A stretch of 64,000 nt of DNA from Candidatus Multivoradales bacterium (GCA_965223155.1 CBDCVR010000013.1:416001-480000), one strand, 5' to 3'. Counted from the first letter of the stretch, positions 2,688 to 63,586 are shown. The notes: a model not told the origin generated them from the letters alone. Made by a program: numbers and translations.

Positions 2688-3934
2688 GCGCCACCGGGAC
2701 GCGGCCCGAGGTCACCCTCCAGGACGTCCGTCGGCTTTGGTTCGCGCGGCAGGGGCTTTCCCAGCCGCGAGGCACAACGGCATTCGGAAAGCGGGCCTTC
2801 GTCGATCACCTGGAACGCACCGGCGCGCTCCAGGTCGACTCCGTCAACGTCGTCGATCGCGCCCACTATTTGACCCTCTGGAGCCGCTTCGGGGCCTACG
2901 ACCGCACGAGGGTCGATCGCTGGATCTACCGCGACCGCGCCGCTTATGAATACTGGGGGCACGAGGCCTCGATTCTGCCAATGGCGCACCTGCCGGTGAG
3001 CCGGCGCAGGATGCGACGCTTTCCGCCCGAGTCCTGGCGCAAGAGCGCCTGGTGGGAGCGGTTCGAAACACCCCTTGCCTCCAAGCGCCGCGTGCTGCGC
3101 CGGATTCGGGATGAAGGTCCGCTCGAGAGCATCGACTTCGAGCGCCGGAAGAACGAGCAGCAACCGAACGTGCCGGGCACCTGGGCGGGCGTCTACCCCA
3201 AAGAGGACAAGCGCACGCTCAAGCGACTCTGGCACGACGGCCGTCTGGCCGTCGCCAAGCGCAAGCACTTCCGCTGCGTCTACGACCTGGCCGATCGGGT
3301 CTATCCTGGCGGGGGCGCCCAGCCTGACGATGGCGTGTCCCCATTCGACATCGCCTCGAAAACTCAGTTCGAGGATAGCTGGCTTCTGGCCGCACTCTCG
3401 GGCAACGGCATCGTGAGCGAGAGACATGCCTTCAAGTACTTCACCTCTCCCGAGCTCAAGGCGGCCGAGCGGCGCCGGGTTCTGGCTCGCAATCTCAAGA
3501 AGGGAACCATTGTCGAGGTAGCGATCCGGGACGCGCCCGAGTTGCCCGGCCCCTGGTACGCGCGGCCCGGAGATCTAGAAAGACTCGCTGAACTGCCCGA
3601 GCCGGAGGGCACCAACCTCCTCTGCCCCTTCGACTCGTTCCTCTGGCAGCGCCAGCGCGCGGCCGACCTCCTGGACTTCCACTACCGAATCGAGATCTAC
3701 GTCCCCGCCGCCAAGCGCCAGTACGGCTACTACGTCCTGCCCATCCTCCACGGCGGCCGCCTCGTCGGCCGCCTCGATCCCAAACTTCATCGCGACCGGG
3801 ACGAGCTCGAAATCAAGTCCCTCCACTGGGAGCCCGGTATCAGGCCGGATTCGAAGCTCCGGCAGGGTCTCGTGGGAGCGCTCGAGGATCTGGGAGAGTT
3901 TCTGGGGGCGCGCAAGGTGACGGCGTGCATCTGA
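2684..3934 (+). CDS. YcaQ/AlkZ-family (HTH_42) crosslink-repair DNA glycosylase
   Basis: LQVDSVNVV (QxD motif), EYWGHEAS, LLCPFD, YRIEIYVP..KRQYGYYVLP; ATGA overlap with the upstream gene. Confidence 0.85.
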   Translation: MSATGTRPEVTLQDVRRLWFARQGLSQPRGTTAFGKRAFVDHLERTGALQVDSVNVVDRAHYLTLWSRFGAYDRTRVDRWIYRDRAAYEYWGHEASILPMAHLPVSRRRMRRFPPESWRKSAWWERFETPLASKRRVLRRIRDEGPLESIDFERRKNEQQPNVPGTWAGVYPKEDKRTLKRLWHDGRLAVAKRKHFRCVYDLADRVYPGGGAQPDDGVSPFDIASKTQFEDSWLLAALSGNGIVSERHAFKYFTSPELKAAERRRVLARNLKKGTIVEVAIRDAPELPGPWYARPGDLERLAELPEPEGTNLLCPFDSFLWQRQRAADLLDFHYRIEIYVPAAKRQYGYYVLPILHGGRLVGRLDPKLHRDRDELEIKSLHWEPGIRPDSKLRQGLVGALEDLGEFLGARKVTACI

Positions 3935-4277
3935 CCCTCTGGGCGTATGCGGCTACTGGCCTCCTTGGCCTGCTGGACGCGTTTTCCTCGCGGGCCACAG
4001 AGCTGCCCCAGAAGACACGCCTTCTTCTCATCGTCCTCTTCGCCCTCGGATTTCTTCGCTTGATGGTCCCGGCCATCATCGAAACGCACTTCGGCCAGGG
4101 CCAGCGTGTCGCCATGGGGCTCGTCGCAGGGCTTCGATGTCCGCCGTGCTGTTCTGGGCTCGGCGGCCACGAGAGGAGTAGCGATCCATGCGCCAATCGA
4201 TGCTAGCCAAGGCCTCCCCTGGAGGGCCTTGCAGAATGTGGGAAACCTTGGAAGGCAGTCGCACTAGGGCGAAACGC

Positions 4278-4311
4278 TTGAGAGCGAACTACAAAATAAG
4301 TACAATGTAGT
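4278..4311 (+). promoter_or_regulatory. TA operon promoter with inverted-repeat operator
   Basis: TTGAGA-17-TACAAT (4278-4306); inverted repeat ACTACA (4288-4293) / TGTAGT (4306-4311) overlaps it. Confidence 0.65.
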
Positions 4312-4312
4312 C

Positions 4313-4609
4313 GTGACCGGCCTGCGCCTCGAATGGGACGACACCAAGAGCGCATCCAACCTCCGCAAGCACGGCGTCTCCTTCGAGGAAGCTGCGACGG
4401 TCTTCTACGATGAGAGTGCACTCTTCATGGCCGACCCAGATCACTCAGAGACGGAAGAACGCTTCATCCTCCTGGGTATGAGCTTCAGACCGCGAGTTCT
4501 CGTCGTCTGCCACTGCTACCGGGGCAGGGAAGACACCATTCGGATCATTTCCGCGCGAAAGGCAGATCGCTCGGAGCGAGGGCAGTACAGTCGGAGACGA
4601 AGAAAATGA
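4313..4609 (+). CDS. brnT: BrnT-family toxin
   Basis: EWDDTKSASNLRKHGVSFEEA...EERF...IRIISARKA signature. Confidence 0.92.
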   Translation: MTGLRLEWDDTKSASNLRKHGVSFEEAATVFYDESALFMADPDHSETEERFILLGMSFRPRVLVVCHCYRGREDTIRIISARKADRSERGQYSRRRRK

Positions 4610-46670: not shown

Positions 46671-47710
46671 CGTTCGACCTCCGGGCGGGACGACGCCAAT
46701 CCTCCGGCAGGAACGAAGGTTGGCGCCCCTCCTTCCAGCCGCAAGAGCGGTCGTTCCGTGATCCGGTCCGGCAGGCTTCCGGGCGCGCTCGCCAGACGCG
46801 AGCTGCGGCTACCGAAAGAACGAACCTCGAAGGCGCTCCAGAAATCGGGCACGACGCTCCGGTAGGTGAGAAAGATCTTCGAACCAAGTGTCTCCCAAGC
46901 CGCGTCGACGCCCCCCCGCCCCGGCAGGACTTCGCCGATTCGCCAGCGACCCGCCGAATAGACGGCCGAACGAACACGGTAGTCGTTCCCGTCGAACCAA
47001 CTCCAAGCGGCCAGCGCGCCTTCCCGGTTCGCCACCACCGAGGGGATGACGTCGGGAACGCGGTTGTCGCGATGGAGGCGGCGTGGGCTGGACCAAGCGC
47101 CGATGTCTCCAGCGACCGCGTCGGCGCTGCGTAGGCTCCAGAAGATCTCGTCATCTTCGCCATCGAACCCGGCCCAAACCAGGAGCCAGCTGCCGTCTTC
47201 GAGCACCGCGCCGGAAAGCGCGAGCTGGGGGCCATCGATCGGCGCCGAGACGCGCTCGCTCCGCTCCCAAGAGCTGCCGTTCCAGACCGCCGCTCGCACC
47301 GTCAGGCGCTGGTGGGTTCCCCCTTCCAGCCAGGCAATGCCGTCGATCCGGCCATCTCGATCCAAGAGAACGGGTGAGAGTTCCAAAGCCTGATTGCGCG
47401 CCGGGATTCGAGGCAGCTTCTGGAAAGCGTTAGCGCTTTGGCCGGTTCTCGGCCGCTCCGCAAGACGAACCGCGACGCGGCCGTCGGCATCCAGGCCAGC
47501 CACGACGAAACCACCCTCGGCCGCGACGGCTGACTCGATTTCGATCTTCGGGCTCCGAACCGTCGCAACCGTCCGGCCCCCCTGGTACAACTCGACCCGA
47601 TCGCGATCTTGTCGGAAGCGAACCGAGTCGGCTTCCCCGGCGGCGGCGGCAGCCGTGCCGACGAGTCCACCCAAGACAACAACGACCGGCCAGTACCGTG
47701 ACCCCTTCAT
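46667..47710 (-). CDS. Secreted hypothetical protein (possible beta-propeller-like repeats)
   Basis: Signal peptide; repeated xxW..DG.D..I/V...W units; ATGA overlap with the downstream gene. Confidence 0.7.
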   Translation of the reverse strand: MKGSRYWPVVVVLGGLVGTAAAAAGEADSVRFRQDRDRVELYQGGRTVATVRSPKIEIESAVAAEGGFVVAGLDADGRVAVRLAERPRTGQSANAFQKLPRIPARNQALELSPVLLDRDGRIDGIAWLEGGTHQRLTVRAAVWNGSSWERSERVSAPIDGPQLALSGAVLEDGSWLLVWAGFDGEDDEIFWSLRSADAVAGDIGAWSSPRRLHRDNRVPDVIPSVVANREGALAAWSWFDGNDYRVRSAVYSAGRWRIGEVLPGRGGVDAAWETLGSKIFLTYRSVVPDFWSAFEVRSFGSRSSRLASAPGSLPDRITERPLLRLEGGAPTFVPAGGLASSRPEVER

Positions 47711-47835
47711 GCTTTCGTTCTCCTCTTCGAACGGCTAGGCCTGGCTGCCGCGCTCCCCATACACGAAGGAAGCAGCCCGAAAAGCCGCTTCCTTCGCTTG
47801 GGATGATGCACGGCCTGGCGCCGTTCGCTCCCGCT

Positions 47836-48834
47836 CTACCCGCAGCCCCCCGAGGAGGGATGCTTGCAGAAGTTGTTGACCGCAGCCGTGATCGAGCTAA
47901 AGGGACCGGTATGGACACCTTCGTTGGTCGTGCGCTCACCGATCCAATCGATGTGCACCCGCCCACCCGACTCGAAGCGAAGGCCCAGGCGCCGCTTGCC
48001 CGCCGGCGAAGCCCAGCGCTGGAGCTTCACGACCGAGCTCTGATCGGAACCCGAAAGAGCGCCGCCCGAACCGCAACCACCGGCCGCGGCGCAGTGCGCG
48101 TTCACCGCGGGAGCGATGCTGCTATAGGGGCCCACGGCGCTGATGACACCGCTGACCCGGCGGTCGACGTAGTGCCGGCCACCACCCTGGAGGCGCAGCT
48201 GGACGCCGCGGCTACCGCTCGCCCACTGCCGCAGCCGGACGATACCGACCTGGTCGGCACCCGAAAGTGCGCCTGAGGGCGGGGTCGTGCCGCCGCCGCC
48301 ACCGCCACCACCACCCCCACCGGAGCCCCCGCCCCCGCCGCCGCCCGGATTGGTCGGCGCGACGTCTCGAATCAAGGGGCTCGCGCCGTCAATCGCGACG
48401 GCCCCGGCGAGCTGGAAGGCGTTCTTGGGGCCCACCCTGGGCATACCCTTGAACTGGAAGTTGAAGACCACCACGTCTCCGGCCTTCATGGGCTTGACCG
48501 ACTGGCAGTCGCCGGCGCCGTTCCGGCGCACGTTCGAGCTCAGCCCGAATGTCGTCGGGTTCTCTTGATCCTGCCGCGAGATCTCGACCTGGGCGTCGAC
48601 CCGGCCGCGATTGCTGAGAGCGAGGTTATTGACATAGCCCATGCACACCAGGACGTCGCCTTCGGCGTCGGTGGGCAGGACGATCGAACGCTGGAGAGCG
48701 GTCGGGTGCTTCTCGCCCCCACCGAGGAAGCGGGAATCCCCGAAGTGGACCCAGTCTGCGCTCGCCGGAGCGACCGCGATCAGGGCCAGGACGGGCACAA
48801 GCGCCCACAGGAGTCGTTTCGAAAGCTTCTTCAT
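47836..48834 (-). CDS. Secreted hypothetical protein with poly-Gly linker and two tandem C-terminal Cys-containing repeats
   Basis: Signal ..APASA/DWVHF; repeats GALSGxDQ..L..WAS..GPxSSI..AVN..C..GGCG. Confidence 0.8.
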   Translation of the reverse strand: MKKLSKRLLWALVPVLALIAVAPASADWVHFGDSRFLGGGEKHPTALQRSIVLPTDAEGDVLVCMGYVNNLALSNRGRVDAQVEISRQDQENPTTFGLSSNVRRNGAGDCQSVKPMKAGDVVVFNFQFKGMPRVGPKNAFQLAGAVAIDGASPLIRDVAPTNPGGGGGGGSGGGGGGGGGGGTTPPSGALSGADQVGIVRLRQWASGSRGVQLRLQGGGRHYVDRRVSGVISAVGPYSSIAPAVNAHCAAAGGCGSGGALSGSDQSSVVKLQRWASPAGKRRLGLRFESGGRVHIDWIGERTTNEGVHTGPFSSITAAVNNFCKHPSSGGCG

Positions 48835-48844
48835 CGGGTCGCTC

Positions 48845-49336
48845 CTATTCCACCGGCTCGAGAGGGTTCTCGCCCGCGACGGCGATCGCCGCCGAGGTCT
48901 GCACGAGATTTCCCTCGGCGACTCTGGGCATGTTCTTGAACTTGAATCGAAATACCACGACGTCGCCTTCGGCCAAAGGAGCGATCCGCTCGCAGCCCTC
49001 GGACTCGTTCTCCTTCACCGATCCGGCCATCTCGACCATCTCATTCTCCTCGGCCTCGGCGCGGGAGATCTCGACCACCACATCCAGCTTGCCCTTCTTG
49101 CCGTTGTTGTGGTTGTTGGCGTACTTGTAGCAAACCTCGGTCTTGCCTTCGGTGGCCGTCGGCAGCACGAGGCTGCGCTCGAGCGTCTTCGGATGCTTCT
49201 TCTTCTTGCCCTCGGCGTGGAACATGGACTCGCTAAAGTGGAGCCAGTCGGCCGATGCAGGGGCGGCTACGGCCAGAATGGCCGTTACGGTCAGCGCCGC
49301 CGCTCCGATGCGCTGAGCCGTCGTCAATCGGTTCAT
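48845..49336 (-). CDS. Secreted hypothetical protein, paralog of the N-terminal domain of the adjacent gene
   Basis: GGAGG SD; APASADWLHF, KHPKTLERSLVLPT, GDVVVFRFKFKNMPRV. Confidence 0.8.
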   Translation of the reverse strand: MNRLTTAQRIGAAALTVTAILAVAAPASADWLHFSESMFHAEGKKKKHPKTLERSLVLPTATEGKTEVCYKYANNHNNGKKGKLDVVVEISRAEAEENEMVEMAGSVKENESEGCERIAPLAEGDVVVFRFKFKNMPRVAEGNLVQTSAAIAVAGENPLEPVE

Positions 49337-49580
49337 GAAACCTCCTCGTGCCGGTGCTCTCCCGGGCTTGGTGCTTCCCACGGTGTAACTGCTGCCGGAA
49401 CTATTGAATGATGCAGAGGATCGATCCCGGACGGGATCGCCGTTAACCCTACCCACAGACGGCGCCCCGGTCAAGTTCGCCCTCCTAGTCCGCCGCCTTC
49501 TTTGCAAATCTCGTGCGAGGGGCCCGCAAGTCGGCGCGCCAGGGCCCGATTCCCAAACTGGCGATTCCTTACGATTTTCC

Positions 49581-49608
49581 TTGACAGACGGTCCGGCTTC
49601 AGTAGAAT
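49581..49608 (+). promoter_or_regulatory. sigma70 promoter of the M23 peptidase gene
   Basis: TTGACA-16-TAGAAT. Confidence 0.65.
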
Positions 49609-49667
49609 GGCGCCCGGTCCTCCGGCTCCGAACTCCGAGACGGTCGATTTTTCTCCCGACAGCTCGC

Positions 49668-50546
49668 ATGGATTCGAAGAAGCACACCATCATTTTTGTG
49701 CCCCATGCCCGGGCTCGCTTCATCAAGTGGCGCATCTCCGGCCGCGTCCTGACCGGAATCGCCGCGGGGCTCGGCTTTTTTCTGTTGCTGTCGCTAGTGA
49801 CGACCTGGTCGTTCTTTACCAACAACATCGACCGGAACGAGCTGGCCCGGATCCAGGAAGAGAACCAGCAGCTTCGCGATGTCAACCGTTCGTTCGAGGA
49901 CAGCATCGGCGACCTCGAGAATCAGCTCGCCAACTTCGAGCAGAGAACGCGCCAACTGGCGATCGTGGCGGGCCTGGAGACCACGGCGGGGAGTCCCGAG
50001 TCGGGCATCGGTGGCGCCGAGCTCGTCCCCGCTTCCCTGTCCGCTGTAGGGGACGGCGACTTCGACGTTCTCCGCGCTCGCGCCGGAGACGTCTTGACTA
50101 GCCTCGACTCGATCCAGAAGCAGTTTGACGAGCGCGAGCGCTGGATCTCGTCCACGCCGGTGATCGAGCCCGTGCGCGGAATTCTGACGTCCGGATTCGG
50201 CTACCGCAGGGATCCTGTAACCGGACGCCCCGCCAGCCACTTCGGCGTCGACATCGCGACCGCGCCCGGCCGCGCCGTCCAGGCACCCGCCACCGGCATC
50301 GTGGTACGTGCCGGCCGCATCGGCAGTCTGGGCGAGGCCGTCTACATTTCCCACGGATACGGGGTGACGACTCGCTATGGCCACCTCTCCGAGGTCTTGG
50401 TCTCCCCCGGGCAGCGCGTTTCCCGCGGGGACACCATCGGCAAGGTGGGCAGCACCGGCAAAGCCACCGGCTACCACCTCCACTACGAAGTCCGCATCGA
50501 CGGCGAGCCGGTCAATCCGATCGCCTACATGTTGGATCGTTCGTAG
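49668..50546 (+). CDS. M23-family metallopeptidase with TM anchor and coiled coil
   Basis: HFGVD, YGHL and HLHYEV motifs. Confidence 0.93.
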   Translation: MDSKKHTIIFVPHARARFIKWRISGRVLTGIAAGLGFFLLLSLVTTWSFFTNNIDRNELARIQEENQQLRDVNRSFEDSIGDLENQLANFEQRTRQLAIVAGLETTAGSPESGIGGAELVPASLSAVGDGDFDVLRARAGDVLTSLDSIQKQFDERERWISSTPVIEPVRGILTSGFGYRRDPVTGRPASHFGVDIATAPGRAVQAPATGIVVRAGRIGSLGEAVYISHGYGVTTRYGHLSEVLVSPGQRVSRGDTIGKVGSTGKATGYHLHYEVRIDGEPVNPIAYMLDRS

Positions 50547-50678
50547 CGTCTTCTCACATCGCACCCGATCTCGGGGTCGCGTGGAGGCGCCGAGGAACGC
50601 GGGCCGGGAACAAATTCGGGCCGCCGGCGGTTTGCTAGACTGGCTCGCCCGTCGGCCCGGGCCCCTCGGTCTCGAATC

Positions 50679-53384
<2,706 letters not shown>

Positions 53385-53427: not shown

Positions 53428-54624
53428 CTACCAGTCGGTGTAGCCGGCGCGGGTGCGAACGCTGGCGCCGCCGTCGACGCGGACCCGGACGTTGTGCCAG
53501 GAGCCGTCGTTGCGCCGCTCGGAGGGGTAGTACCCGATCACGTACTGCCCGCGAAGCTCCGCCAGGATCTCTCCAAAGGCTCCGGCCAACTCGTCCGGAT
53601 CCTGCACGATCTGGATTCGTCCACCGCTCTCGTCAACCGCCCGGCGCAGCCTCCGGAACTCGGTTCGGTTGCCGTCGACGTCCCGCCATGAGCTCGTATA
53701 GGTGGGAATGGCCTCGGGGTCCGGAGCGTGGGTCAGGTAGATCCAGTAGATGAGGCTGGCGCTCCGGCGCGCCTTCTCCAGGACGTCGTCCATGCCCAGT
53801 ACGCTGTGCACGTCGGCACCGTCGGAGAACACGACCAGAACGCGCCGGCCTTGCTGGCGCTCCACCTGCTGCAGCGCGAGGAAGAGATGATCGGTGAGCG
53901 CGGTGCCGCCGGCGGCAACGACGTCTTCGAGCGCCGGCGCCAGCTCCGCTGCCGAATCCTCGAATCCGGTCGCCCGGAGCAACTGGTCCGAAAACAGCAT
54001 CACGCTCACCTCGTCCAGTTCGCGCATGCCGTTCAAGAAGACTCGAGCGCCTTCGAGGGCGCCGTCCAACCGCTCGCCCGTCATGCTGAGACTGCTGTCC
54101 AGCAGCAGCACCGCTGTCAGCGGTACGTCGCCGCGCTCGAACGTCACGATCTTCTGCGGAGTGCCCTCGTCCAAGACGCGAAAATCGCCGCGCTCGAGAT
54201 CCAGCCGGCGCCGGCCGCCTTCGGTGACGGTCACGTAGAGCTGCTGCAGCTCGATGTCCACGAGCTCATCGACGCGGAGCTTGGGTGTCGTAATCCGGCC
54301 TCTGGCCTGCGAGCCCGAGACCGTCTCGAGCACGACCTCGAAAACATGTTCGACGTTGTCCTGGCCGACGTCCACCAGGGCCTGGTACGGCGGACTGGTC
54401 ACCCGCATTTCGGACTTGCCATCGACCAGAAAGTCGACGTGCCGGACAGGCTCGTCCGAAACCGCCGTGGCCACGACCTCGACCAAACCGGAGACAAAAT
54501 CGGTGCCGAGTGGATAGTCGATGAAGATCCGTGGCTCTTCGGCTAGGGCCGGCCGAGCGAACCCCAAGAGCAGGACGCCGGCGACCAGCGCTCGTCCCGC
54601 CACTCGCCACATTCGCCGGCTCAC
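53428..54624 (-). CDS. Secreted Ig-like plus VWA-domain protein (acidobacterial VWFA type)
   Basis: MIDAS DSSLSM, GGTAL, FSDGAD, ESGG, ELRGQYVIGY. Confidence 0.88.
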   Translation of the reverse strand: MSRRMWRVAGRALVAGVLLLGFARPALAEEPRIFIDYPLGTDFVSGLVEVVATAVSDEPVRHVDFLVDGKSEMRVTSPPYQALVDVGQDNVEHVFEVVLETVSGSQARGRITTPKLRVDELVDIELQQLYVTVTEGGRRRLDLERGDFRVLDEGTPQKIVTFERGDVPLTAVLLLDSSLSMTGERLDGALEGARVFLNGMRELDEVSVMLFSDQLLRATGFEDSAAELAPALEDVVAAGGTALTDHLFLALQQVERQQGRRVLVVFSDGADVHSVLGMDDVLEKARRSASLIYWIYLTHAPDPEAIPTYTSSWRDVDGNRTEFRRLRRAVDESGGRIQIVQDPDELAGAFGEILAELRGQYVIGYYPSERRNDGSWHNVRVRVDGGASVRTRAGYTDW

Positions 54625-55748
54625 GAAGCGTCCTCCCCGTCTTCCTCCCCGCCCAGCCCCAGGCCGGAAGCCAGAAGAGGCAGCCGGTCGGTCATGGCCT
54701 GGATGAGCCCCGCGCGGGCTTCCTCGAGTCCGGCCCTGGGGTAGGAGTCGTAGATCTGGCGCGGGCCCGAGCCGCTGGCCGTCTGCTCGCTCAACCGATT
54801 GAGGAGATTCCAGGCCTCGGTCCGACGCTTCGAACCCTCGAGCAGCCGGATCAGCTGAAGGGTCAGGTTCTGGTCACCGGGCAGTTCCTCCAGCGCGCCC
54901 CGGAGCACGGTCTCGGCCGCGTCCACTCGACCGAGTTGGATCAGAAGGCGGGCGCGCTCCTGCGCCGCGATCGAGCGGATCCATTCCGCCGTCGCCTCGC
55001 TCGCCAGGCGCTCCAGGTCCCGTAGCGCGGCTTGCTGGGTCGCGTCCTGCGCTTCCGAGGCCAGCTTCGGCACGAGCCGAACTCGACATAGCGTCAGTCT
55101 CAGCTCGGCCTCCTCGAAACCCGGCCGCATTTCCAGCAAGCGCTCGAAGTATTCGACCGCCCGCTCGTACTCGCCGCCCTTTTCGAAATTGGCCCCCAGG
55201 CTCCAGATCGCGAAGACATTGCGCGGGTCCAGGGCGACGGCCTTGTAGAAGAACTCGGTCGAGCCCGCGAGCGCACGCTGCTCCTGCAAGTTCGCGGCGA
55301 AGCTGATCCGGACCCAGGCGGCGAAGTCGCGGGCAGCGCGCGAGTCCCCCTTCTCGGCGTAGAAGTCCGCCAGCTCGGTGGCCATGACCCGGGCGTGCCC
55401 GGCGAGGACGCCGCGGCCGTTCTCGAGATAGTGCTGGTAGGCCTCGTGGTGCAGCATCACGACCGGTATCAGGATGTCGGGAGGCTGGCCGTCCAACACT
55501 TCGCGCAGCACACCCAGCTTGAGCTTCCAGAAGGCCTCCAACCGCTTCTGATTCGGATCCGAGCCGAAAGCCTCGTGCTCGAGCTTAGCTAGCGGCGCCA
55601 GAGCCGGCTCGACACCCTCGGCCGCCAGGGTCCTGAGCACCGCCCGGTACCGAAGTTGGACCGTCCTGGGCCTGAGCGCGGCGCTCAACTGCGCGCTTGC
55701 GAGAAGCACGAGACCGGCGAAAACTAGGAAGGTGGATCGGCGAGGCAC
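54621..55748 (-). CDS. Secreted tetratricopeptide-repeat protein
   Basis: Signal peptide from GTG 55748; TPR pattern AVALDPRN..LG..YERAV..FER.LE.RP; GTGA overlap with the VWA gene. Confidence 0.75.
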   Translation of the reverse strand: MPRRSTFLVFAGLVLLASAQLSAALRPRTVQLRYRAVLRTLAAEGVEPALAPLAKLEHEAFGSDPNQKRLEAFWKLKLGVLREVLDGQPPDILIPVVMLHHEAYQHYLENGRGVLAGHARVMATELADFYAEKGDSRAARDFAAWVRISFAANLQEQRALAGSTEFFYKAVALDPRNVFAIWSLGANFEKGGEYERAVEYFERLLEMRPGFEEAELRLTLCRVRLVPKLASEAQDATQQAALRDLERLASEATAEWIRSIAAQERARLLIQLGRVDAAETVLRGALEELPGDQNLTLQLIRLLEGSKRRTEAWNLLNRLSEQTASGSGPRQIYDSYPRAGLEEARAGLIQAMTDRLPLLASGLGLGGEEDGEDAS

Positions 55749-55952
55749 GATGGTTTGGAACGTCCGCCCGGCGGGTTGGGGGGTCCGGGCGTGGACGGAA
55801 AAATACCACAAAGCACCACCTCCGAGCACGTGGTAACGTCCGGCGCTCAAGGCCCCCCGCAACTCGGCCCACGCTCCTCTGGAACCGCAGCGGCCGCTTC
55901 GCACGCTGCGCCCGAGGGCCATCCGCTCGCAAGCCGCTCCGGCACGTCACGA

Positions 55953-58037
55953 ATGACCGAACAACCCGAACGCCTCGAAAAGCAGCTCGGGTTCTTCTCC
56001 ATCTACGCCATCGCCACCGGTACTACGCTGAGCGCCGGGATTTTTCTGCTGCCGGGCATTGCGGCCCTCCAGGCGGGACCCGCGTTGGTCCTCTCCTACC
56101 TCCTGGCGGTGGTACCGCTGATCCCGGCCACCTGCAGCATCTTGGAGCTCTCGACCGCGCTTCCCCGCGCCGGAGGCGTCTACTATTTCCTGGACCGAAG
56201 CTTGGGGCCGGCGGTGGGCTCGGTCGGCGGCTGGGGGACCTGGCTGGCGCTGCTCCTCAAAGTGGCCTTCGCGTTGGTCGGGATGGGTGCGTACATCGCG
56301 CTGTTTCAGCCGGACCTGCCGATTCGCCCTCTGGCGATCGCGATCGCCCTTGCCCTGGGCGGACTCAATCTCTTTGGCGCGCGCAAGAGCGGCCAGGTGC
56401 AGCTCTTGCTCGTGGTCGGGCTCCTGGTCGTCTTGACTGGCTTCATCGCCATGGGTCTGGTGCGCATGGAGCCAACGCACTTCAATGACTTCACCGCTGC
56501 CGGACTGGACGGCATCGTGGCCACCGCCGGCTTGGTGTTCATCAGTTACGTCGGCGTGACCAAGGTCGCGAGCCTGTCCGAGGAAGTCGCCGATCCGGAG
56601 CGGACGCTACCCGTGGCAGTCTTCCTGGCGCTGGCCACCGCCGTGCTCATCTATGGCCTTGCGACTCTGGTCCTGGTCGGGGTGCTGCCGCTGCCCGAGT
56701 TCCAAGGCGACTTGACGCCGATGGCCTCCGCCGCCGACCGCATCCTGGGCCGCTGGGGCCTGGTGCTGGTCTCAGCCGCCGCGCTCGCCGCCTTCACCTC
56801 GGTCGCGAACGCCGGCACCCTGTCCTCCTCCCGCTATCCGCTCGCCATGAGTCGCGACCATCTGATGCCGCCGCTCTTTCGCCGGCTGAACAGCGCCAAG
56901 GTGCCGTATGCCAGCGTTGCTCTATCGACTTTGGTTCTGGTCGTGATCCTCACGTTTCTGGACGTCGCCAAGATCGCCAAGCTGGCGAGCTCGTTTCAAC
57001 TCCTCATGTTCGCCCTGGTTTGCCTGGCGGTAATCGTCCTACGCGAAAGCCGGCTCGAGGCCTACGACCCGGGATTTCGCTCGCCTCTCTACCCCTGGAT
57101 GCAGCTCTTCGGGATCGCCGCCTCGGTCGTCATGATCTGGAGCATGGGTCCACTGACCAAGTACTTCAGTCTCGGCTTCGTCGCCGCCGGCCTCCTTTGG
57201 TATCGCTTCTACGCCCACGGCAAGGTCTCCAGAAGCGGCGCCATCTACCACCTGCTGGCCCGCATCGCGAACCGGCGGCTGGACCTCGGCCTGGAATCGG
57301 AGCTGCGCCAACTCCTGCGGGAAAAGGGCCTGCGCGATGACGATCCGTTCGAGAGCACTGTCACCGCTGCGCGCTTCGTGGATCTGGACGACGAGGAGCC
57401 GGTCTTCGACGACATCACCATGGCGGTCGCGGACTCGCTCGAACTGGACGTCCCCGCCAGCCGCGACGAGCTCAATTCCGGCTTCCTGGAGGGCAACCGC
57501 CTGGGCACCACCTTGGTCGCCGACGGCGCCGCGATGCCCCATCTGCGCCTCTTCGGGATCGAACGGCCGGAACTGGTCATCGTCCGTGCCCGGCGGGGCG
57601 TCCAGGTGGACGTGACCGACGTTCACGGCGAGCATTCCCACACCGAGCCCGCTTACGCTCTCTTCTACCTGGTCAGCCCCGAGGAGAATCCCCAGCAGCA
57701 CTTCCGAATCCTGGCCGAGCTGGCCGAGCGGGTGGCCTCAGCCGGCTTTGTCGAGGCCTGGCGGCGAGCGGACGACGAGCAGAGCGTCAAAGAGATCCTC
57801 TTGCGTGACGAGCACTTTCTCTCGGTCCGCATCCGCTCTGGAGCGCCCAGCGGCGAGTTCATCGGCCGGACCATTCGCGAGATCTCGCTGGGAGACGACG
57901 TGCTCATCGCCTTGATCCATCGCCAGGGCGAGATCACCGTACCGCGCGGCCAGGTGGTCCTTCAGGAGCACGACCGGCTGACCCTGCTAGGAGAGCCGAC
58001 GCGCATCCTGAGCCTGCGAGAGCGGTTCTCGCCGTAG
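55953..58037 (+). CDS. APC-family amino-acid permease fused to PTS EIIA-like and TrkA-C (RCK_C) domains
   Basis: About 12 TM APC core (GIFLLPG, PRAGG.Y, SEEV.DPER.LP); GAAMPHLR EIIA His motif; C-terminal RCK_C. Confidence 0.88.
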   Translation: MTEQPERLEKQLGFFSIYAIATGTTLSAGIFLLPGIAALQAGPALVLSYLLAVVPLIPATCSILELSTALPRAGGVYYFLDRSLGPAVGSVGGWGTWLALLLKVAFALVGMGAYIALFQPDLPIRPLAIAIALALGGLNLFGARKSGQVQLLLVVGLLVVLTGFIAMGLVRMEPTHFNDFTAAGLDGIVATAGLVFISYVGVTKVASLSEEVADPERTLPVAVFLALATAVLIYGLATLVLVGVLPLPEFQGDLTPMASAADRILGRWGLVLVSAAALAAFTSVANAGTLSSSRYPLAMSRDHLMPPLFRRLNSAKVPYASVALSTLVLVVILTFLDVAKIAKLASSFQLLMFALVCLAVIVLRESRLEAYDPGFRSPLYPWMQLFGIAASVVMIWSMGPLTKYFSLGFVAAGLLWYRFYAHGKVSRSGAIYHLLARIANRRLDLGLESELRQLLREKGLRDDDPFESTVTAARFVDLDDEEPVFDDITMAVADSLELDVPASRDELNSGFLEGNRLGTTLVADGAAMPHLRLFGIERPELVIVRARRGVQVDVTDVHGEHSHTEPAYALFYLVSPEENPQQHFRILAELAERVASAGFVEAWRRADDEQSVKEILLRDEHFLSVRIRSGAPSGEFIGRTIREISLGDDVLIALIHRQGEITVPRGQVVLQEHDRLTLLGEPTRILSLRERFSP

Positions 58038-58081
58038 ACTCGCCCACTCAAGCGTCATTGGCGCCTCTCTTGGCGGGACGA

Positions 58082-59650
58082 TCAGGCCAGGAGCAGCGGC
58101 AGGCGCTCGATTGCCGTAGCCTGGGACAACCCCAGCAGGTGAGCGCCCCGGACCACCGCGTCGAGATCGACCGGGTACAGGTTCCGGCGGCCGGGCTCGG
58201 CCAGGCCGGCCAGATTCCAAGGCTCGATCGCCCGCCGGATCCACCGCTCGAAAGACTCGTCCCGGTTCTCGAAGTCCGAGGCCGCGAGACGACGACATGC
58301 CTCATCCAGCAGGGCCTCCCGCTCGGGCCGGCCGCCTCCCAGGAATCCCGACCAATGAGCCCGCTCGCGTCGCTCCAGCAGCATCCGTTGCTCCACTTCA
58401 GCAAAGCTCACCAGCGAGAAGTACAGGAGCGCGTGGGCGATGGCGCGGCCAGGACGCTCGCGTGCCAGGTAGGCACCATGGACCAGCCGTTCGATCTGAT
58501 CGGCCTCGGCGGCGAGAAGCGCGGCGTAGCGGCCGGTGTCGGGCTCGTCCCCGCACAAGATCTCGGACAGGCGCTCCACCGCGATCAGGGTCCAAGCGAT
58601 GCCGGTGGAGAACAGCGGTTCGAAGAATGCGTAGGCGTGCGGCAAGGCCGCCCAGGAGACGCCGGCGGGCCGCTCACGACGGTACTGGAGCTCGGGCACC
58701 GAGCGCCAGGGACGGATCGGCCGAGCGGTCTCGAACACCTCGGCCAAGGTGGGATACCGGGCCACGACTCGCGTCCACAGCGCCTTGGGCTCCCGCTTGG
58801 AGAGCGCGGCCCGGGCCTCTCGATCGATGGTAACCAGGCCCACGCTCGTCACCCCGCCATCAAAGGGAAGAAGGTAGATCCAGCCCTCGTCCACGAAGTG
58901 ATGCACCGCGGCCCGAAACTCCGCATACGGCCCCGGCTCCGCACCCCTCAAGACGGGCGGCGCGGCCTCGACGCCTTCGAGATGGCTGAAGAGCAGTCCC
59001 GACCGGAAGCGCGCCGGGCGCGGGCGGCGTTCGGCGCCCAGGGTTTGGCTCACGACTCCAGCCCTCCCGGACGCATCGACCACGAATCCCGCCCGGACGG
59101 CCTCAGTCGGACCGCGGTTGTCCGTCGAGGCTAGCTCCAGACGCATTCCACCCGGCTCCACCACGACGTCGACGACCTCGGTGTTCTCACGGAGCTCGAC
59201 CCCGCGATCCCGGGCCCGGGCCGCCAGGAACGCGTCTACGTCGGCCCGCAGCCAGTGCGTGTCGGCCAGCTCATCGTCAGGCGAAGCCGCCACCAGGAGG
59301 CGCCGGCCGGCGGCCGGGTCCGGATCGAACCGCTGCCCGGGCCGATGCCACCAGAACGTGAAGCCGCGCTTGAGGCCGCGCTCGAGCTCGGGTCGCCGCT
59401 TGCGCCAGCGCCCATAGGTGGCCAGATCGCGAAGCTCCGGGAACTCGTACCTCCCGGCCAGGCGTTGGAGGCTCAGGTTGGCAAGCGGCGTCGTCGACTC
59501 ACCCAGGGCAAAGCGCGGATGCCTTCCCCGCTCAACCACGAGGACCCTCCGTCCCCGAGAAGCCAGGCAGCCTCCCAGTATCGTGCCCCCGAAACCGCCG
59601 CCCACGATGGCGACGTCGTACCGGTCCCCGGCTCGGCCTCCGCTCATCAT
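58082..59650 (-). CDS. Flavin-dependent halogenase-like protein (PrnC / tryptophan-halogenase family)
   Basis: GGGFGG, HPRFALGES, GLKRGFTF (candidate catalytic Lys), DASG, GWIYLLP (WxWxIP variant), FFEPLFSTG. Confidence 0.8.
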   Translation of the reverse strand: MMSGGRAGDRYDVAIVGGGFGGTILGGCLASRGRRVLVVERGRHPRFALGESTTPLANLSLQRLAGRYEFPELRDLATYGRWRKRRPELERGLKRGFTFWWHRPGQRFDPDPAAGRRLLVAASPDDELADTHWLRADVDAFLAARARDRGVELRENTEVVDVVVEPGGMRLELASTDNRGPTEAVRAGFVVDASGRAGVVSQTLGAERRPRPARFRSGLLFSHLEGVEAAPPVLRGAEPGPYAEFRAAVHHFVDEGWIYLLPFDGGVTSVGLVTIDREARAALSKREPKALWTRVVARYPTLAEVFETARPIRPWRSVPELQYRRERPAGVSWAALPHAYAFFEPLFSTGIAWTLIAVERLSEILCGDEPDTGRYAALLAAEADQIERLVHGAYLARERPGRAIAHALLYFSLVSFAEVEQRMLLERRERAHWSGFLGGGRPEREALLDEACRRLAASDFENRDESFERWIRRAIEPWNLAGLAEPGRRNLYPVDLDAVVRGAHLLGLSQATAIERLPLLLA

Positions 59651-60669
59651 CCGTGCGGTTGGGCCGGCGGCTGCCCAGCGGCCGGACCGGACGGACAATC
59701 TGGGCAGGGAGCTCCGTCGAGGACCTCCGCGGCGCCGCTCTCGGCCGCCTCCATGAGTCGAGCCAGCCGCGCTTCCGAGCAGGACGGGCAGCGGCCGAAC
59801 GAGGCGAGATCCCAGGTGTCCAGCAGGACGGTTCCGCCAGTGAGTCCCAGAGCCCGGCCGAACACCCTTTCGACCTCGGCCAGGTCCGGCGCCCGGAATT
59901 CCCCCCCCTCGGCCAGCCGCTCCAGCGCGCCGTTGCCTCCTCGCACGGGGATTAGCGAGACGGTCTCGACACCGTGCTCGAAGGCGTAGGCCGCGCTCAG
60001 CACCGGCCAATGCTCCCGCTCCGACTCCGGCACATACGGGGCGCCGACGAGGACGAACGCCCGTACCGGAATCCCGCTCGCGTCCAGGAATTCGAGAGCC
60101 CGATCGAAGTCGTCGCGACTCATTGCCTTGTTCAGCCGCGGTAGCGCCCGAGGATGGATCGTCTCGAGACCGATGGCCACCTCCAGGCATCCACCCAGAG
60201 CTTCATGAAAGCGCGTAACGCCGGGGCCCAAGAAGGCGGGGTGGCATTCCGCCACCACCCGCTCGTATCCCGCGCACAGGCCCGCCAGGGCGCCCAAGTC
60301 CTCCTCGGGCACGGCGCGCGGATCGAAGAAGTTCGAGGCGTTGTAGAGCTTGAGGCGGGCTCCCGGCGGCGGCTCGCCCGCCTCCCGCAGAACCGCGTCG
60401 AGCTGTCGCGGCAACACTCCGGGCGGCGTCGGCCCCTCCAGCGTGTGCTGCCACAGGTCGCAGAAAACGCACGAGAACGGACACTCGGCGCCGGCCAGAA
60501 ACACGGTCACCGAACGGACCTTCCGGCCGCCGGCCCGCTCCTTCTCGATCAACGTACCGATAGCCGCATTGGGATCGGGCGGCCGCTTGGCTTCCCGCAG
60601 GCTTCGAACCCACCGGCCCGCGCCGGCCGTCTGGCTTCCGACCCGGGCGGCGTCCCCGGGCCCGGTCAC
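59647..60669 (-). CDS. Radical SAM enzyme, RaSEA/TIGR01210-like
   Basis: CPFSCVFC; KLYNASNFFD..VP; LEVAIGLET; LNK; GTG start overlaps the upstream stop (GTGA). Confidence 0.85.
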   Translation of the reverse strand: MTGPGDAARVGSQTAGAGRWVRSLREAKRPPDPNAAIGTLIEKERAGGRKVRSVTVFLAGAECPFSCVFCDLWQHTLEGPTPPGVLPRQLDAVLREAGEPPPGARLKLYNASNFFDPRAVPEEDLGALAGLCAGYERVVAECHPAFLGPGVTRFHEALGGCLEVAIGLETIHPRALPRLNKAMSRDDFDRALEFLDASGIPVRAFVLVGAPYVPESEREHWPVLSAAYAFEHGVETVSLIPVRGGNGALERLAEGGEFRAPDLAEVERVFGRALGLTGGTVLLDTWDLASFGRCPSCSEARLARLMEAAESGAAEVLDGAPCPDCPSGPAAGQPPAQPHG

Positions 60670-62012
60670 GCCCGCCGCGGGCTCGGATCGGCGTAGAGCG
60701 AGGTGAAGTGCCGGCGATAGGCCTCTGCGCTCGCCCCGAAGATCCGCGCGAAGTCGTCGCCGGAAGTCGCGCCGGTCTGAAAGCGGCACTTGGGGAAGAC
60801 CGGCATTTCGAATCCGAGAACCGAGCGTACGCCGCTCGCCACGATCTCGCCCTTGAGGGCGTAGAGGCGCTCGTGGTCGCCGTCCGCCAGCTCGGAAAAG
60901 GGAATCGCCGAGGCGATCTCGACCAGACGCGGTGACGTGTAGGGGCTAAACCCGACGAAGCCCAGCCTGCGGGCGGGCGCGAAGGTGCGTACGCAACCGC
61001 GGCTCAAGCCGCCACTGTAGGTCAGCGAGTGCTTGATGCAGTCGACGCCCCATCCCTCCTGGTACAGCATCGGGTTGTTGACTACGCTCCGGATGGTGAG
61101 CTCGGGATTTTCCTCGATCGGGTAGTCCTTCAGGTTTTCGTCGCCGCCGTCGCCATCGATCAGGAAGGTCCAGTCCGCATACCGGGCTCGCAACGCCTCC
61201 AGAAGGGCCAGATTCACCGCCGCGCACTCCACGTCCCGAGGCTTGTAGTCCTCAATCGCTTCGATCGCTCGGAGCGGATCCACCGCGCCCGCCGGGACCT
61301 CGATCGGCTCCAGGAAAAGCTCCAGATCCAGTGCGGAGAGAAAGGCGCGGGACTGCTCCAGATCGCTGCCCCCGCCGTCCACGGCAAGGGTGAAGGCCTT
61401 GAGCCTGGCCGGAGACTGACCGCGCTCCAGCAGACCGCGGTACACCGACAGAAACACCGAGCCACTGTCGATTCCCCCGGAGAACAGGACACCGATGGGC
61501 TCGCGCTCGGGCTGAGAGTCCAGCCAGTGCCCCACCTGGGTGTGAAGCGCACCGACGTAGCTGTGCCCGATGGCATCGACCTTGGCCGTCAGGGCCGCGG
61601 GCCGCTCGGCCACGAAGCGGACATGCTCCGGATTGGGATCGGGACAGCCGATGAGCCGGAGCGAGGTGACGTGATGCGCGGGCACCATCCGCGTGTAGGA
61701 CGGATGGAACTGCTCCGCGTACCCCTCCTCCGCCAGGGTCGTCTCGATCTCGGCGATCGACTCGGCAACTACCAGGAGCGGCCCCTCGACTTCCTTCGCC
61801 AGAAAGTAGCGCAGGGGACGATCCAGGGAGCGAGCCAAGAACACCACCTCGTCACAGCGCGCGGCGAGAGCGAAAGACCCCTCGACCGCGCCAAAGGCTT
61901 CGGCATTGCCCGAGGCCAGGACCTCCCTGGCTTCCTCAACGCTGTGGTGCCATAGACGCTGGCCCTCCGGCCGCGTCCGATCGATCATCCGGGCTACGTA
62001 ATCTGCTCGCAT
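60666..62012 (-). CDS. Asparagine-synthetase-like ATP pyrophosphatase lacking the N-terminal glutaminase Cys
   Basis: PP-loop LFSGGIDSG; DGDGGDE; truncated GATase remnant GSFALA..LARSLDRPLRY; GAGGAG SD. Confidence 0.85.
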   Translation of the reverse strand: MRADYVARMIDRTRPEGQRLWHHSVEEAREVLASGNAEAFGAVEGSFALAARCDEVVFLARSLDRPLRYFLAKEVEGPLLVVAESIAEIETTLAEEGYAEQFHPSYTRMVPAHHVTSLRLIGCPDPNPEHVRFVAERPAALTAKVDAIGHSYVGALHTQVGHWLDSQPEREPIGVLFSGGIDSGSVFLSVYRGLLERGQSPARLKAFTLAVDGGGSDLEQSRAFLSALDLELFLEPIEVPAGAVDPLRAIEAIEDYKPRDVECAAVNLALLEALRARYADWTFLIDGDGGDENLKDYPIEENPELTIRSVVNNPMLYQEGWGVDCIKHSLTYSGGLSRGCVRTFAPARRLGFVGFSPYTSPRLVEIASAIPFSELADGDHERLYALKGEIVASGVRSVLGFEMPVFPKCRFQTGATSGDDFARIFGASAEAYRRHFTSLYADPSPRRA

Positions 62013-62057
62013 CGCTCGTCTCCTCGAGGCCGGCACCGAACGTCCGGAGCCGCTGGA

Positions 62058-62066
62058 ATCTTACCA
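62058..62066 (-). promoter_or_regulatory. Extended -10 promoter candidate for the AsnB-like/rSAM/halogenase operon
   Basis: TGGTAAGAT (TGn plus TAAGAT) about 45 nt upstream of ATG 62012. Confidence 0.45.
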
Positions 62067-62110
62067 GCGCGACGCCCGCGGGCAGAGCCGACTCGGCAGC
62101 CGTTCCGCCG

Positions 62111-63586
62111 CTACCGGTCAACCCAGTAATTGGGCGCTTCCTTGGTGATCACGACATCGTGGGCGTGGCTCTCCTTGTGCCCCGCTGCCGTCACCCGCGC
62201 CAGCCGGGCCTCGGTTCTGAGCTCCTCGATCGAGGCGCAGCCGGCAAGCCCCATGCCGGCGCGAAGGCCGCCCACGACCTGGGCCAGCATCTGATGCACG
62301 CTTCCCTTGAAGGGGACCATCCCTTCGATGCCTTCGGGCACCATCTTGGCGAGCTCGCCTTCACTGCTCTGGAAGTACCGGTCGGCGCTGCCCTTGCGCA
62401 TGGCCGAAATCGAGCCCATTCCCCGGTGGGCCTTGTACGAGCGGCCTTGGTACAGGATGGTCTCCCCAGGGCTCTCCTCGGTACCCGCAAACAACGAACC
62501 GATCATGACCGAGTGCCCGCCGGCGGCGACCGCCTTGACCACGTCACCCGAGAACTTGATGCCGCCGTCGGCGATCACCGGCAGGTCGTGCTCGGCGGCA
62601 GCCCGGGCGCAATCCAGAACCGCGCTCACCTGGGGCAAACCGGCGCCGGTCACGATCCGGGTGGTGCAGATGGAGCCCGGCCCGATGCCCACCTTGACGC
62701 CGTCGACGCCTCGTTCAGCGAGCGCTCGTACGCCCTCGCCGGTGGCCACGTTCCCCGCCACCAGACGCACCTCGGGCAACGCCTCGCGCAGCCGCGAGAG
62801 CCCGTCTAGGACACCCCAACTGTGGGCGTGCGACGAATCCAGCACCAGGAAGTCCACCTTGGCCGCCACCAGCGCCTGGGCGCGCTCGACCGCGTCGCCC
62901 CCCGAGCCCACCGCGCCGCCGACCCGCAGGCGGCCCAGGTCGTCCTTGCAGGCATTCGGGAACCGTTCGGCCTTTTCGATGTCCTTGACGGTAATCAACC
63001 CCTTGAGCTCGCGGGCTTCGTCGACCACCAGGAGCTTCTCGATCCGGTGCCGGTGGAGCAGCTCCTTCGCCTCTTCCAGGGTCGTGCCCTCGGCAACGGT
63101 TACCAGATCCTGGCTGGTCATCACCGCCTCGATCGGCTGCTCCAGATCGCTCTCGAAGCGCAGGTCCCGATTCGTCAGGATGCCGGCCAGCTTGCCGGAG
63201 GCTTCGGTCACCGGCACGCCCGAGATCTTGTAGCGGGCCATCACCTCCAGGGCTTCCCGCAGTTTCTGGTCCGGGCGCATGGTGACCGGGTCCACGATCA
63301 TGCCGGCCTCGCTACGCTTGACCCGGTCTACCTCCGCGGCCTGATCCGCGATGGTGAGATTCTTGTGGATCACGCCGACGCCGCCCTCCTGAGCCAAGGC
63401 GATGGCGAGCCGAGACTCGGTCACGGTGTCCATCGCCGCCGCCACGATCGGGACGTTGAGATGGATTCCACGGCACAGTCGCGTCCGCAGATCGACCTCG
63501 TTCGGATGGACCCCGGAGTACGCCGGGACCAGCAGCACGTCATCGAAGGTCAGGGCGACGGGAAGATCGGATTTGGGATCGGGCAT
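62111..63586 (-). CDS. guaB: IMP dehydrogenase
   Basis: [11 protein letters not shown] pair, [28 protein letters not shown]. Confidence 0.97.

Follow-up and report, generated by a model that had tools for sequence, protein, structure and literature searches.

The closest described counterpart of the gene trio reported here is the ArcS-RaSEA system of Euryarchaeota. ArcS is a paralogue of tRNA-guanine transglycosylase that adds lysine to a nitrile. Its partner RaSEA, a radical S-adenosylmethionine (SAM) enzyme, converts preQ0-Lys to archaeosine and, in the accessible part of the source, is described as active only in complex with the lysine-adding ArcS; the added amino acid is cleaved and its nitrogen left behind, and the amino acid is the donor, ArcS using neither ammonia nor glutamine according to the same part (PMC11298593). 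The operon described here consists of three minus-strand open reading frames (ORFs), numbered genes 1 to 3, that fill positions 58082-62012 of a 64,000-nucleotide stretch of DNA from Candidatus Multivoradales bacterium (GCA_965223155.1, CBDCVR010000013.1:416001-480000); this whole stretch is called the window, and all positions are counted from its first letter. As in ArcS-RaSEA, a putative amine-adding enzyme (gene 1) is paired obligately with a radical SAM enzyme related to TIGR01210 (gene 2). Unlike ArcS, the partner is predicted to have an AsnB/PP-loop fold and is proposed to use ATP on a carboxylate; the hosts are bacterial, and a flavin halogenase family protein (gene 3) is attached.

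Other known systems resemble the three genes one at a time. MnmL/YhcC (TIGR01212; YtqA) strips the carboxymethyl group from 5-carboxymethylaminomethyl-2-thiouridine (cmnm5s2U) in the part of the preprint available, thus removing an amino-acid-derived group from a nitrogen, as is proposed for gene 2 (bioRxiv 10.64898/2026.05.18.725915). As far as the accessible parts of these two sources go, RaSEA and MnmL/YhcC both cut an amino-acid-derived alkyl group off a nitrogen that is retained. Unlike gene 2, MnmL acts alone on tRNA and has no ligase partner, and its sequence matches to gene 2 are weak. Gene 1 shares with the beta-lactam synthetase of the clavulanate pathway and with the carbapenam synthetase CarA a two-domain AsnB fold, a vestigial N-terminal domain lacking the cysteine, and an ATP/PP-loop site; these enzymes differ from it in closing intramolecular rings and in having no RaSEA-type partner, and no beta-lactam genes lie near the trio. 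Gene 3 aligns over about 360 residues with the tetracycline 7-halogenase CtcP and the phloroglucinol halogenase PltM, sharing the GxGxxG motif, the catalytic lysine, and a C-terminal FxPxFSxG-like segment; it differs from them in a degenerate WxWxIP motif, a family-specific C-terminal domain of about 160 residues, and the lack of linked polyketide genes. PylBCD is another compact, portable trio, comprising a radical SAM enzyme, an amide ligase that uses ATP, and an oxidoreductase; with no further dedicated genes, it makes a new compound from ordinary amino acids. This is an analogy only, as the families are different (PylC is of the ATP-grasp type and PylD a dehydrogenase) and no homology is implied; PylB was only a distant fold match of the gene 2 model (3t7v, rank 45). 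Judged by their sequences, the three proteins are new families within known superfamilies. A full-text literature search, with subscription journals and preprint supplements outside it, found neither the trio nor a matching pathway, in agreement with the original prediction, an earlier reading of this DNA that knew of no characterised pathway with this triad.

The three genes form a genuine operon that stands by itself and serves a cytoplasmic enzyme pathway; its obligate core is the ligase-radical SAM pair, to which the halogenase adds a third step that is common but can be dispensed with. In a search of one genome per species with six gene 1 peptide patterns, 258 stretches matched; 186 of these encode a relative of the ligase, and 80 loci, mostly from Acidobacteriaceae, were kept. 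One of them, L069, is the trio locus of the cultured Acidipila rosea DSM 103428. The radical SAM gene directly follows the ligase gene in 77 of the 80 loci and the flavoprotein gene comes next in 72, and all 72 complete loci have ligase, radical SAM enzyme, and flavoprotein in that order on one strand. Four of the eight loci without the flavoprotein (L057, L059, L070, and L075) end inside or just past the radical SAM gene, three planctomycete loci (L006, L007, and L013) have neither partner near the ligase, and one (L074) has space for the flavoprotein gene, yet the gene is absent. The three planctomycete genomes with a lone ligase have the genes for the radical SAM enzyme and the flavoprotein at other sites; in the planctomycete G201, these two genes adjoin each other.

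Presence and absence were followed in an even sample of 201 genomes from the window's phylum. The ligase was found in 17 of them (this carrier count, here and below, includes G024, which is flagged unpublished), the radical SAM enzyme in the identical 17, and neither gene in the other 184. The two genes are adjacent in 16 of the 17 carriers and lie at the ends of two contigs in the remaining one (G178). The pair is regarded as obligate because of this shared distribution and the adjacency in 77 of 80 loci. An orthologue of the flavoprotein (E <= 1e-146) stands beside the pair in 15 of the 17 carriers. Of the other two, G119, which belongs to the window's family and is 100% complete, has only the ligase and radical SAM genes, followed by a convergent gene for glycine-cleavage P protein; G011 (L092, G011:C302) has a PIN-domain gene (4077-4472, plus strand) between the ligase and radical SAM genes and no flavoprotein. 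Halogenation cannot be essential to the core function, since the flavoprotein is missing from G119 and G011 and also from G204. The co-occurrence of the triad that had been predicted thus holds for the first two genes in full and for the third in most carriers. Two non-carriers, G034 and G188, each contain a halogenase paralogue that is more distant and stands in other gene surroundings. In the phylum of G201, the ligase was found in 6 of 151 sampled genomes, G201 counted.

The trio also appears to stand apart from its surroundings: the flanks of ten diverse loci have nothing in common across phyla, and the IMP (inosine monophosphate) dehydrogenase gene that lies upstream in the window is adjacent to the trio in 0 of the 80 loci, so the trio is taken as a self-contained unit. 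Ligase-radical SAM fusions (P0126, P0129, and probably P0128) and one radical SAM-flavoprotein fusion (P0127) fit this linkage, but they are single-member clusters of genes with 4-bp overlaps and may therefore be frameshift or gene-call artefacts. Other domain combinations were set aside: a stretch of about 440 amino acids at the N-terminus of the ligase in P0130 and probably P0131 (31-33 members; P0130 was read) is an apparent spurious ORF extension, and P0125 (radical SAM with FHA) and P0132 (ligase with a PmoA-like domain) are single members that gave no functional lead. Two further genes, the flavoprotein gene of G203 (G203:C6:914757-916224) and the radical SAM gene of G005 (G005:C86:151634-152605), were each matched in two separate pieces, which may reflect a frameshift, an insertion, or decay.

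These linkage data bear on the possibility that the three enzymes act independently, as a plain ammonia-dependent asparagine synthetase alongside a radical SAM enzyme and a monooxygenase that have nothing to do with it, in which case their adjacency would carry no functional meaning. Each protein does come from a large superfamily with housekeeping members, and the operon sits here among housekeeping genes (IMP dehydrogenase, SecA). Against this stand the 4-bp overlaps, the constant gene order in 72 of 72 loci, the identical presence and absence of genes 1 and 2 across the 201 genomes, the retention of the trio in planctomycetes even when dispersed, and the score of gene 1 with the AsnB equivalog model TIGR01536, which at 26.9 bits is far below the cut-off of 267.1. 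Independent housekeeping roles are extremely improbable and, by the linkage, close to refuted.

The three enzyme classes originally named were borne out by profile scans, in which gene 1 scored 37.7 bits with PF00733 (cut-off 21), gene 2 scored 34 bits with PF04055 (cut-off 29.5), and gene 3 scored 60 bits with PF04820 (cut-off 21). Gene 1 begins with MRADY and has no Cys2, and a conserved N-terminal cysteine is absent in 19 aligned sequences, as expected of the ligase without a glutaminase cysteine that had been proposed. Its identity to 18 homologues from Acidobacteriota, Planctomycetota, Gemmatimonadota, and Thermoanaerobaculia is 54-63%. In beta-lactam and carbapenam synthetases, the catalytic residues are a Tyr-Glu dyad and a lysine. 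An AlphaFold2 model of gene 1 (predicted local distance difference test, pLDDT, 81.9) had as its best Foldseek match beta-lactam synthetase (1mbz_A, E 2.8e-12, query TM-score, TMq, 0.62), followed over the whole chain by human ASNS, E. coli AsnB, CarA (1q19_A, E 2.1e-9, TMq 0.58), and TsnB9. The nearly invariant block of 38 residues (Table 1) falls mostly within a low-confidence stretch of the model (residues 293-334). A single-sequence phmmer search of PDB sequences gave no matches, including to beta-lactam synthetase or CarA, and a gene 1 profile matched only ASNS and AsnB in the PDB (5.6e-5 to 2.8e-3). An Atlas look-up with the ligase returned only unnamed "asparagine synthase-related" clusters, and a search of 72,556 plasmid records with the ligase by tblastn gave no match at 1e-20. 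By its sequence and modelled fold, gene 1 is classed as a PP-loop enzyme that depends on ATP, has the two domains of the AsnB/beta-lactam-synthetase fold, and lacks a glutaminase nucleophile.

The top whole-chain fold matches, 1mbz_A and 1q19_A, are both enzymes without the glutaminase cysteine that make amides within one molecule, and radical SAM tailoring enzymes are known in carbapenem pathways; gene 1 could thus be a beta-lactam-synthetase-like cyclase, with genes 2 and 3 tailoring a small amino-acid-derived lactam as a secondary metabolite. This seems unlikely, given that neither phmmer nor the profile linked gene 1 to beta-lactam synthetase or CarA at the sequence level, that no other beta-lactam pathway, resistance, or exporter genes lie near in the window or in the ten diverse loci, and that the ligase is unusually conserved for secondary metabolism. 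The pairing of the ligase with a RaSEA/MnmL-type enzyme in 17 of 17 carriers also points to coupled chemistry rather than optional tailoring.

Gene 2 carries the cysteine motif for a radical SAM cluster (Table 1); its C-terminal part has a CxxC pair at residue 294 and another at 322, both nearly invariant in an alignment of 18 sequences. The earlier placement of this enzyme near RaSEA was right as to relatedness; gene 2 scored 53.6 bits with TIGR01210, far below the curated cut-off of 212.15. TIGR01210 matches all 18 aligned family members (best E 5.6e-31) and TIGR01212, the MnmL/YtqA model, matches 9 of the 18 weakly (best E 1.2e-6). No single-sequence matches to gene 2 were found in the PDB, and a profile found nothing there below E 0.44; the AlphaFold2 model (pLDDT 89.2) had its best fold match in the radical SAM domain of Elp3 (8pty_C, E 2.3e-7, TMq 0.50). 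A gene 2 profile run against 1.84 billion representatives recovered 572 clusters at E <= 1e-30. From these comparisons, gene 2 is assigned as a [4Fe-4S]/SAM radical enzyme whose nearest characterised relatives are RaSEA and MnmL/YhcC.

The characterised relatives of gene 2 are all tRNA enzymes, as reflected in the TIGR01210 and TIGR01212 matches (18/18 and 9/18) and the Elp3 fold, and PP-loop enzymes often act on tRNA. It is conceivable, then, that the target of the cassette is a nucleoside of tRNA or of some other RNA, with the ligase attaching an amino acid at an activated carboxylate of a modified base, the radical SAM enzyme trimming it, and the flavoprotein oxidising or halogenating the base; the identity of 54-63% between ligases across phyla and their near-invariant 38-residue block would fit a universally conserved macromolecular substrate. 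Several observations make this an improbable account. A Pfam scan of the three proteins gave no domain for RNA binding (PUA, THUMP, or the like), and the three families are all acidic, with median isoelectric points of 5.8, 6.05, and 6.5 for genes 1, 2, and 3. The spread is patchy, at 17/201 and 6/151 in two phyla, which is unusual, though not unheard of, for a translation-related modification. Close relatives of the flavoprotein act on free phenolic compounds, and we know of no halogenated RNA nucleoside.

WxWxIP is a motif of flavin-dependent halogenases. Gene 3 has a degenerate form of it (Table 1), and most of its homologues have W-x-W-V-L-R/H at this site, where CtcP and PltM keep the full motif. 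Gene 3 had been called PrnC-like; the halogenase class is upheld, but the closest relatives are CtcP (7xgb, phmmer E 3.7e-47 against PDB sequences) and PltM (6bzt, E 1.3e-44), and PrnC is not among the structure matches. Matches to the protein maturases QhpG, LodB, and GoxB are weak (E 6e-16 to 7e-8). The lysine aligned with the catalytic Lys87 of PltM is retained (Table 1), and the K87A mutant of PltM is reported as inactive in the accessible part of that study (PMC6424973). Gene 3 is, by sequence comparison, a CtcP/PltM-type flavin halogenase family protein with the catalytic lysine kept. MnmC, which is flavin- and oxygen-dependent, and the anaerobic radical SAM enzyme MnmL carry out the same step in parallel, as the available part of the preprint describes (bioRxiv 10.64898/2026.05.18.725915), and by analogy the flavoprotein could stand in for gene 2 under aerobic conditions, a role that the conservation of the halogenase lysine speaks against.

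An AsnB-fold enzyme without a nitrogen supply of its own, tied genetically to a RaSEA/MnmL-like enzyme, suggests a nitrogen relay. The reading tentatively preferred here, to which a probability of roughly 0.35 is given, is an amino-acid nitrogen relay followed by halogenation on a small aromatic acid scaffold. In essence, it is the pathway put forward in the original prediction. Gene 1 would adenylate the carboxylate of a common small metabolite, probably an aromatic one, and join it to an amino acid, for example lysine or glycine, at the amine group of the latter. Gene 2 would then cut the resulting N-C bond by radical chemistry and leave a primary amide or amidine, so that the amino acid takes the place of glutamine as nitrogen donor. 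Gene 3 would chlorinate or brominate an electron-rich ring of the same scaffold, with reduced flavin supplied by a general reductase. Since the cassette functions in unrelated phyla with no constant neighbours, its substrates must belong to the normal contents of the cell, and the activity of CtcP and PltM on free phenolic substrates fits the absence of a carrier protein. The acidic character of the three protein families also counts in favour of this reading.

Several points weigh against this pathway. The sequence of ligation, cleavage, and halogenation is drawn by analogy with the systems above. The chemistry of gene 2 may differ from that of RaSEA, since its score is so far below the RaSEA cut-off, and every characterised relative of gene 2 (RaSEA and MnmL/YhcC, with Elp3 by fold) acts on tRNA. 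The nearest folds to gene 1, beta-lactam synthetase and CarA, make intramolecular lactams, not intermolecular amides. The WxWxIP motif of gene 3 is degenerate, the flavoprotein is absent from the three genomes named above, and the operon has neither a flavin reductase nor an exporter linked to it.

The only recurrent neighbours of the trio could hint at a different role. Genes for an ASPIC/UnbV FG-GAP protein and an RnfD/NqrB-like membrane protein lie beside the trio in 57-59 of the 80 loci, mostly in Acidobacteriaceae; the pair is also found in the Gemmatimonadaceae locus L005, with the FG-GAP gene only in the Bryobacterales locus L044, and lies within 2-6 kb in G099, G028, G178, and G146, members of four families within the phylum of the window. 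G011 has an FG-GAP gene where the flavoprotein would otherwise be, co-oriented with the radical SAM gene and overlapping its end, and in P0248 (896 aa, a 50%-cluster representative) a radical SAM domain of this family (residues 6-307) is fused to FG-GAP repeats and ASPIC/UnbV, although this lone fusion may be a gene-calling artefact. PF07593 was found in 17 of 17 carriers and 91 of 184 non-carriers, the genomes being related and so not independent (the RnfD-like and PF07593 counts include G024, G152, or G049, the latter two also unpublished). Together with the weak resemblance of the flavoprotein to the protein maturases QhpG, LodB, and GoxB, these data would be accommodated if the cassette served secreted FG-GAP/ASPIC-UnbV beta-propeller proteins, either by modifying a subset of them before export or by making a ligand or cofactor for them. 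That this is its role is distinctly improbable: none of the 16 FG-GAP/ASPIC ORFs of this genome is in the window, 91 of 108 genomes with PF07593 do not have the trio, and there are 4-20 FG-GAP/ASPIC genes per carrier, so chance adjacency is possible. An RnfD-like orthologue occurs without the trio in three genomes, while seven carriers have no RnfD-like match and four more have weak ones, probably paralogues; an obligate partnership of the trio with the RnfD-like protein is thereby ruled out. The broader claim that the cassette places an amide-bearing, sometimes halogenated modification on a macromolecule, be it a tRNA nucleoside or a secreted FG-GAP/ASPIC protein, with an amino acid as the sacrificial nitrogen donor, is considered quite unlikely as well.

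Whatever its product, the cassette is kept with unusually strong sequence conservation in bacteria of at least three phyla and is carried or lacked as a unit by soil and water bacteria of several phyla, which makes it an orphan pathway that is broadly conserved, cleanly delimited, and experimentally tractable. Solving its function would most likely reveal a bacterial nitrogen relay of the ArcS-RaSEA type, with an amino acid replacing glutamine as amide donor, or alternatively a small metabolite or a modification of a macromolecule that is new, perhaps halogenated, and common among the Acidobacteriota, Gemmatimonadota, and Planctomycetota of soil. A function would thereby be gained for this separate clade of flavin halogenases and for the radical SAM family, which comprises at least 572 sequence clusters. 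If a macromolecule were the substrate, the chemistry would be a new bacterial nitrogen relay and the first case of a halogenase tied to the modification of RNA or, outside the ribosomally made peptides that are modified after translation (RiPPs), of a folded protein.

The layout of the operon was described correctly by the original prediction with respect to the genes, as direct reading of the sequence confirmed three minus-strand genes that are translationally coupled through 4-bp overlaps at both junctions (Table 1). The start codons of all three are consistent with the N-termini of their homologues in the three alignments. Of the start signals predicted for the operon, a Shine-Dalgarno-like sequence is present; the extended -10 element was spotted by eye and stays a mere candidate, because a two-hexamer consensus promoter scan of 57800-62300 gave 0 sites. 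No carrier protein, nonribosomal peptide synthetase, polyketide synthase (PKS), precursor-peptide ORF, or flavin reductase is adjacent to the operon, and the earlier statement that its window neighbours supply neither precursor peptide nor carrier holds. An Rfam scan at gathering thresholds over 12 loci (139,399 bases), the window operon among them, gave no match upstream of the operon and no riboswitch. The sole matches in that scan were two Acido-Lenti-1 small RNAs, just above the gathering score, in a Blastocatellia genome (L056:3207-3251, minus strand, and 3348-3392, plus strand), about 2.6 kb upstream of the trio there.

Table 1. Features of the three-gene operon and its immediate neighbours (positions in the window)
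Feature	Position	Strand	Remarks
Gene 1: predicted Cys-less AsnB/beta-lactam-synthetase-fold PP-loop enzyme	60666-62012	-	448 aa; PF00733 2.4e-9; ATG start 62010-62012
PP-loop SGGIDS of gene 1, residues 178-183	61464-61481	-	S178, G179, G180, D182, and S183 invariant 19/19
Near-invariant 38-residue block of gene 1, residues 286-323	61044-61157	-	nearly all columns invariant 19/19
GTGA overlap	60666-60669	-	gene 1 stop overlapping gene 2 GTG start
Gene 2: predicted radical SAM enzyme nearest RaSEA (TIGR01210) and MnmL/YtqA (TIGR01212)	59647-60669	-	340 aa; PF04055
CX3CX2C cluster motif CPFSCVFC of gene 2 (C63/C67/C70)	60460-60483	-	cysteines invariant 18/18
ATGA overlap	59647-59650	-	gene 2 stop overlapping gene 3 ATG start
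Gene 3: predicted flavin-dependent halogenase family protein nearest CtcP and PltM	58082-59650	-	522 aa; PF04820 2.6e-16
GxGxxG motif GGGFGG of gene 3, residues 17-22, for binding of flavin adenine dinucleotide (FAD)	59585-59602	-	G17, G19, and G22 invariant 17/17
Lys94 of gene 3	59369-59371	-	aligned with catalytic Lys87 of PltM; invariant 17/17
Degenerate WxWxIP motif WIYLLP of gene 3, residues 257-262	58865-58882	-	only W257 invariant
Shine-Dalgarno-like GAGGAG	62020-62025	-	7 nt upstream of gene 1 ATG
Candidate extended -10 element TGGTAAGAT	62058-62066	-	spotted by eye
IMP dehydrogenase	62111-63586	-	upstream of operon
Amino-acid permease	55755-58037	+	downstream of operon, convergent

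The permease is a protein of 760 aa in which an APC family domain is fused to EIIA-2 of the phosphotransferase system (PTS) and to TrkA-C, a regulatory-looking architecture. Elsewhere in the window, adjoining genes for VWA-domain and TPR proteins (53428-55922, minus strand), possibly Bat-like, are unlinked to the trio in other genomes. Four successive ORFs of 332-421 aa (46667-51059, minus strand) match no Pfam family at 1e-5 and stand beside a GDSL-lipase-domain protein of 920 aa (43908-46670); some of the four may be spurious, the genome being GC-rich.

Three further loci drew attention through ASPIC/UnbV genes or halogenase paralogues. Outside the window but in the same genome, a gene run on the minus strand (G000:C14:282948-294242; L093:948-12242) encodes an ASPIC/UnbV FG-GAP protein (818 aa), an RnfD/NqrB-like protein (437 aa), and a PfaA-like type I PKS (1987 aa) with ketosynthase (KS), acyltransferase (AT), ketoreductase (KR), and dehydratase (DH) domains in the order KS-AT-KR-DH, then an AraC regulator, and includes two family-less ORFs. 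This run may resemble an enediyne-type PKSE cassette with UnbU and UnbV partners. The idea that the trio is part of a PKS cassette was dropped, as the carriers G205-G209 have no orthologue of this PKS; three of the five have partial KS-AT matches to it. The halogenase paralogue of G034 (L094, G034:C4:33000-52000) lies beside genes for DUF1702, RoxA-like cytochrome c proteins, an ALO-like FAD oxidase, and an ASPIC/UnbV protein, and an adjoining ORF of 314 aa is the RnfD-like match of that genome. The paralogue of G188 (L095, G188:C1:356000-375000) lies beside a PKS of 2007 aa with the domain order AT-KS-KR-DH, a protein combining an acyl carrier protein (ACP) domain with KR, and a desaturase.

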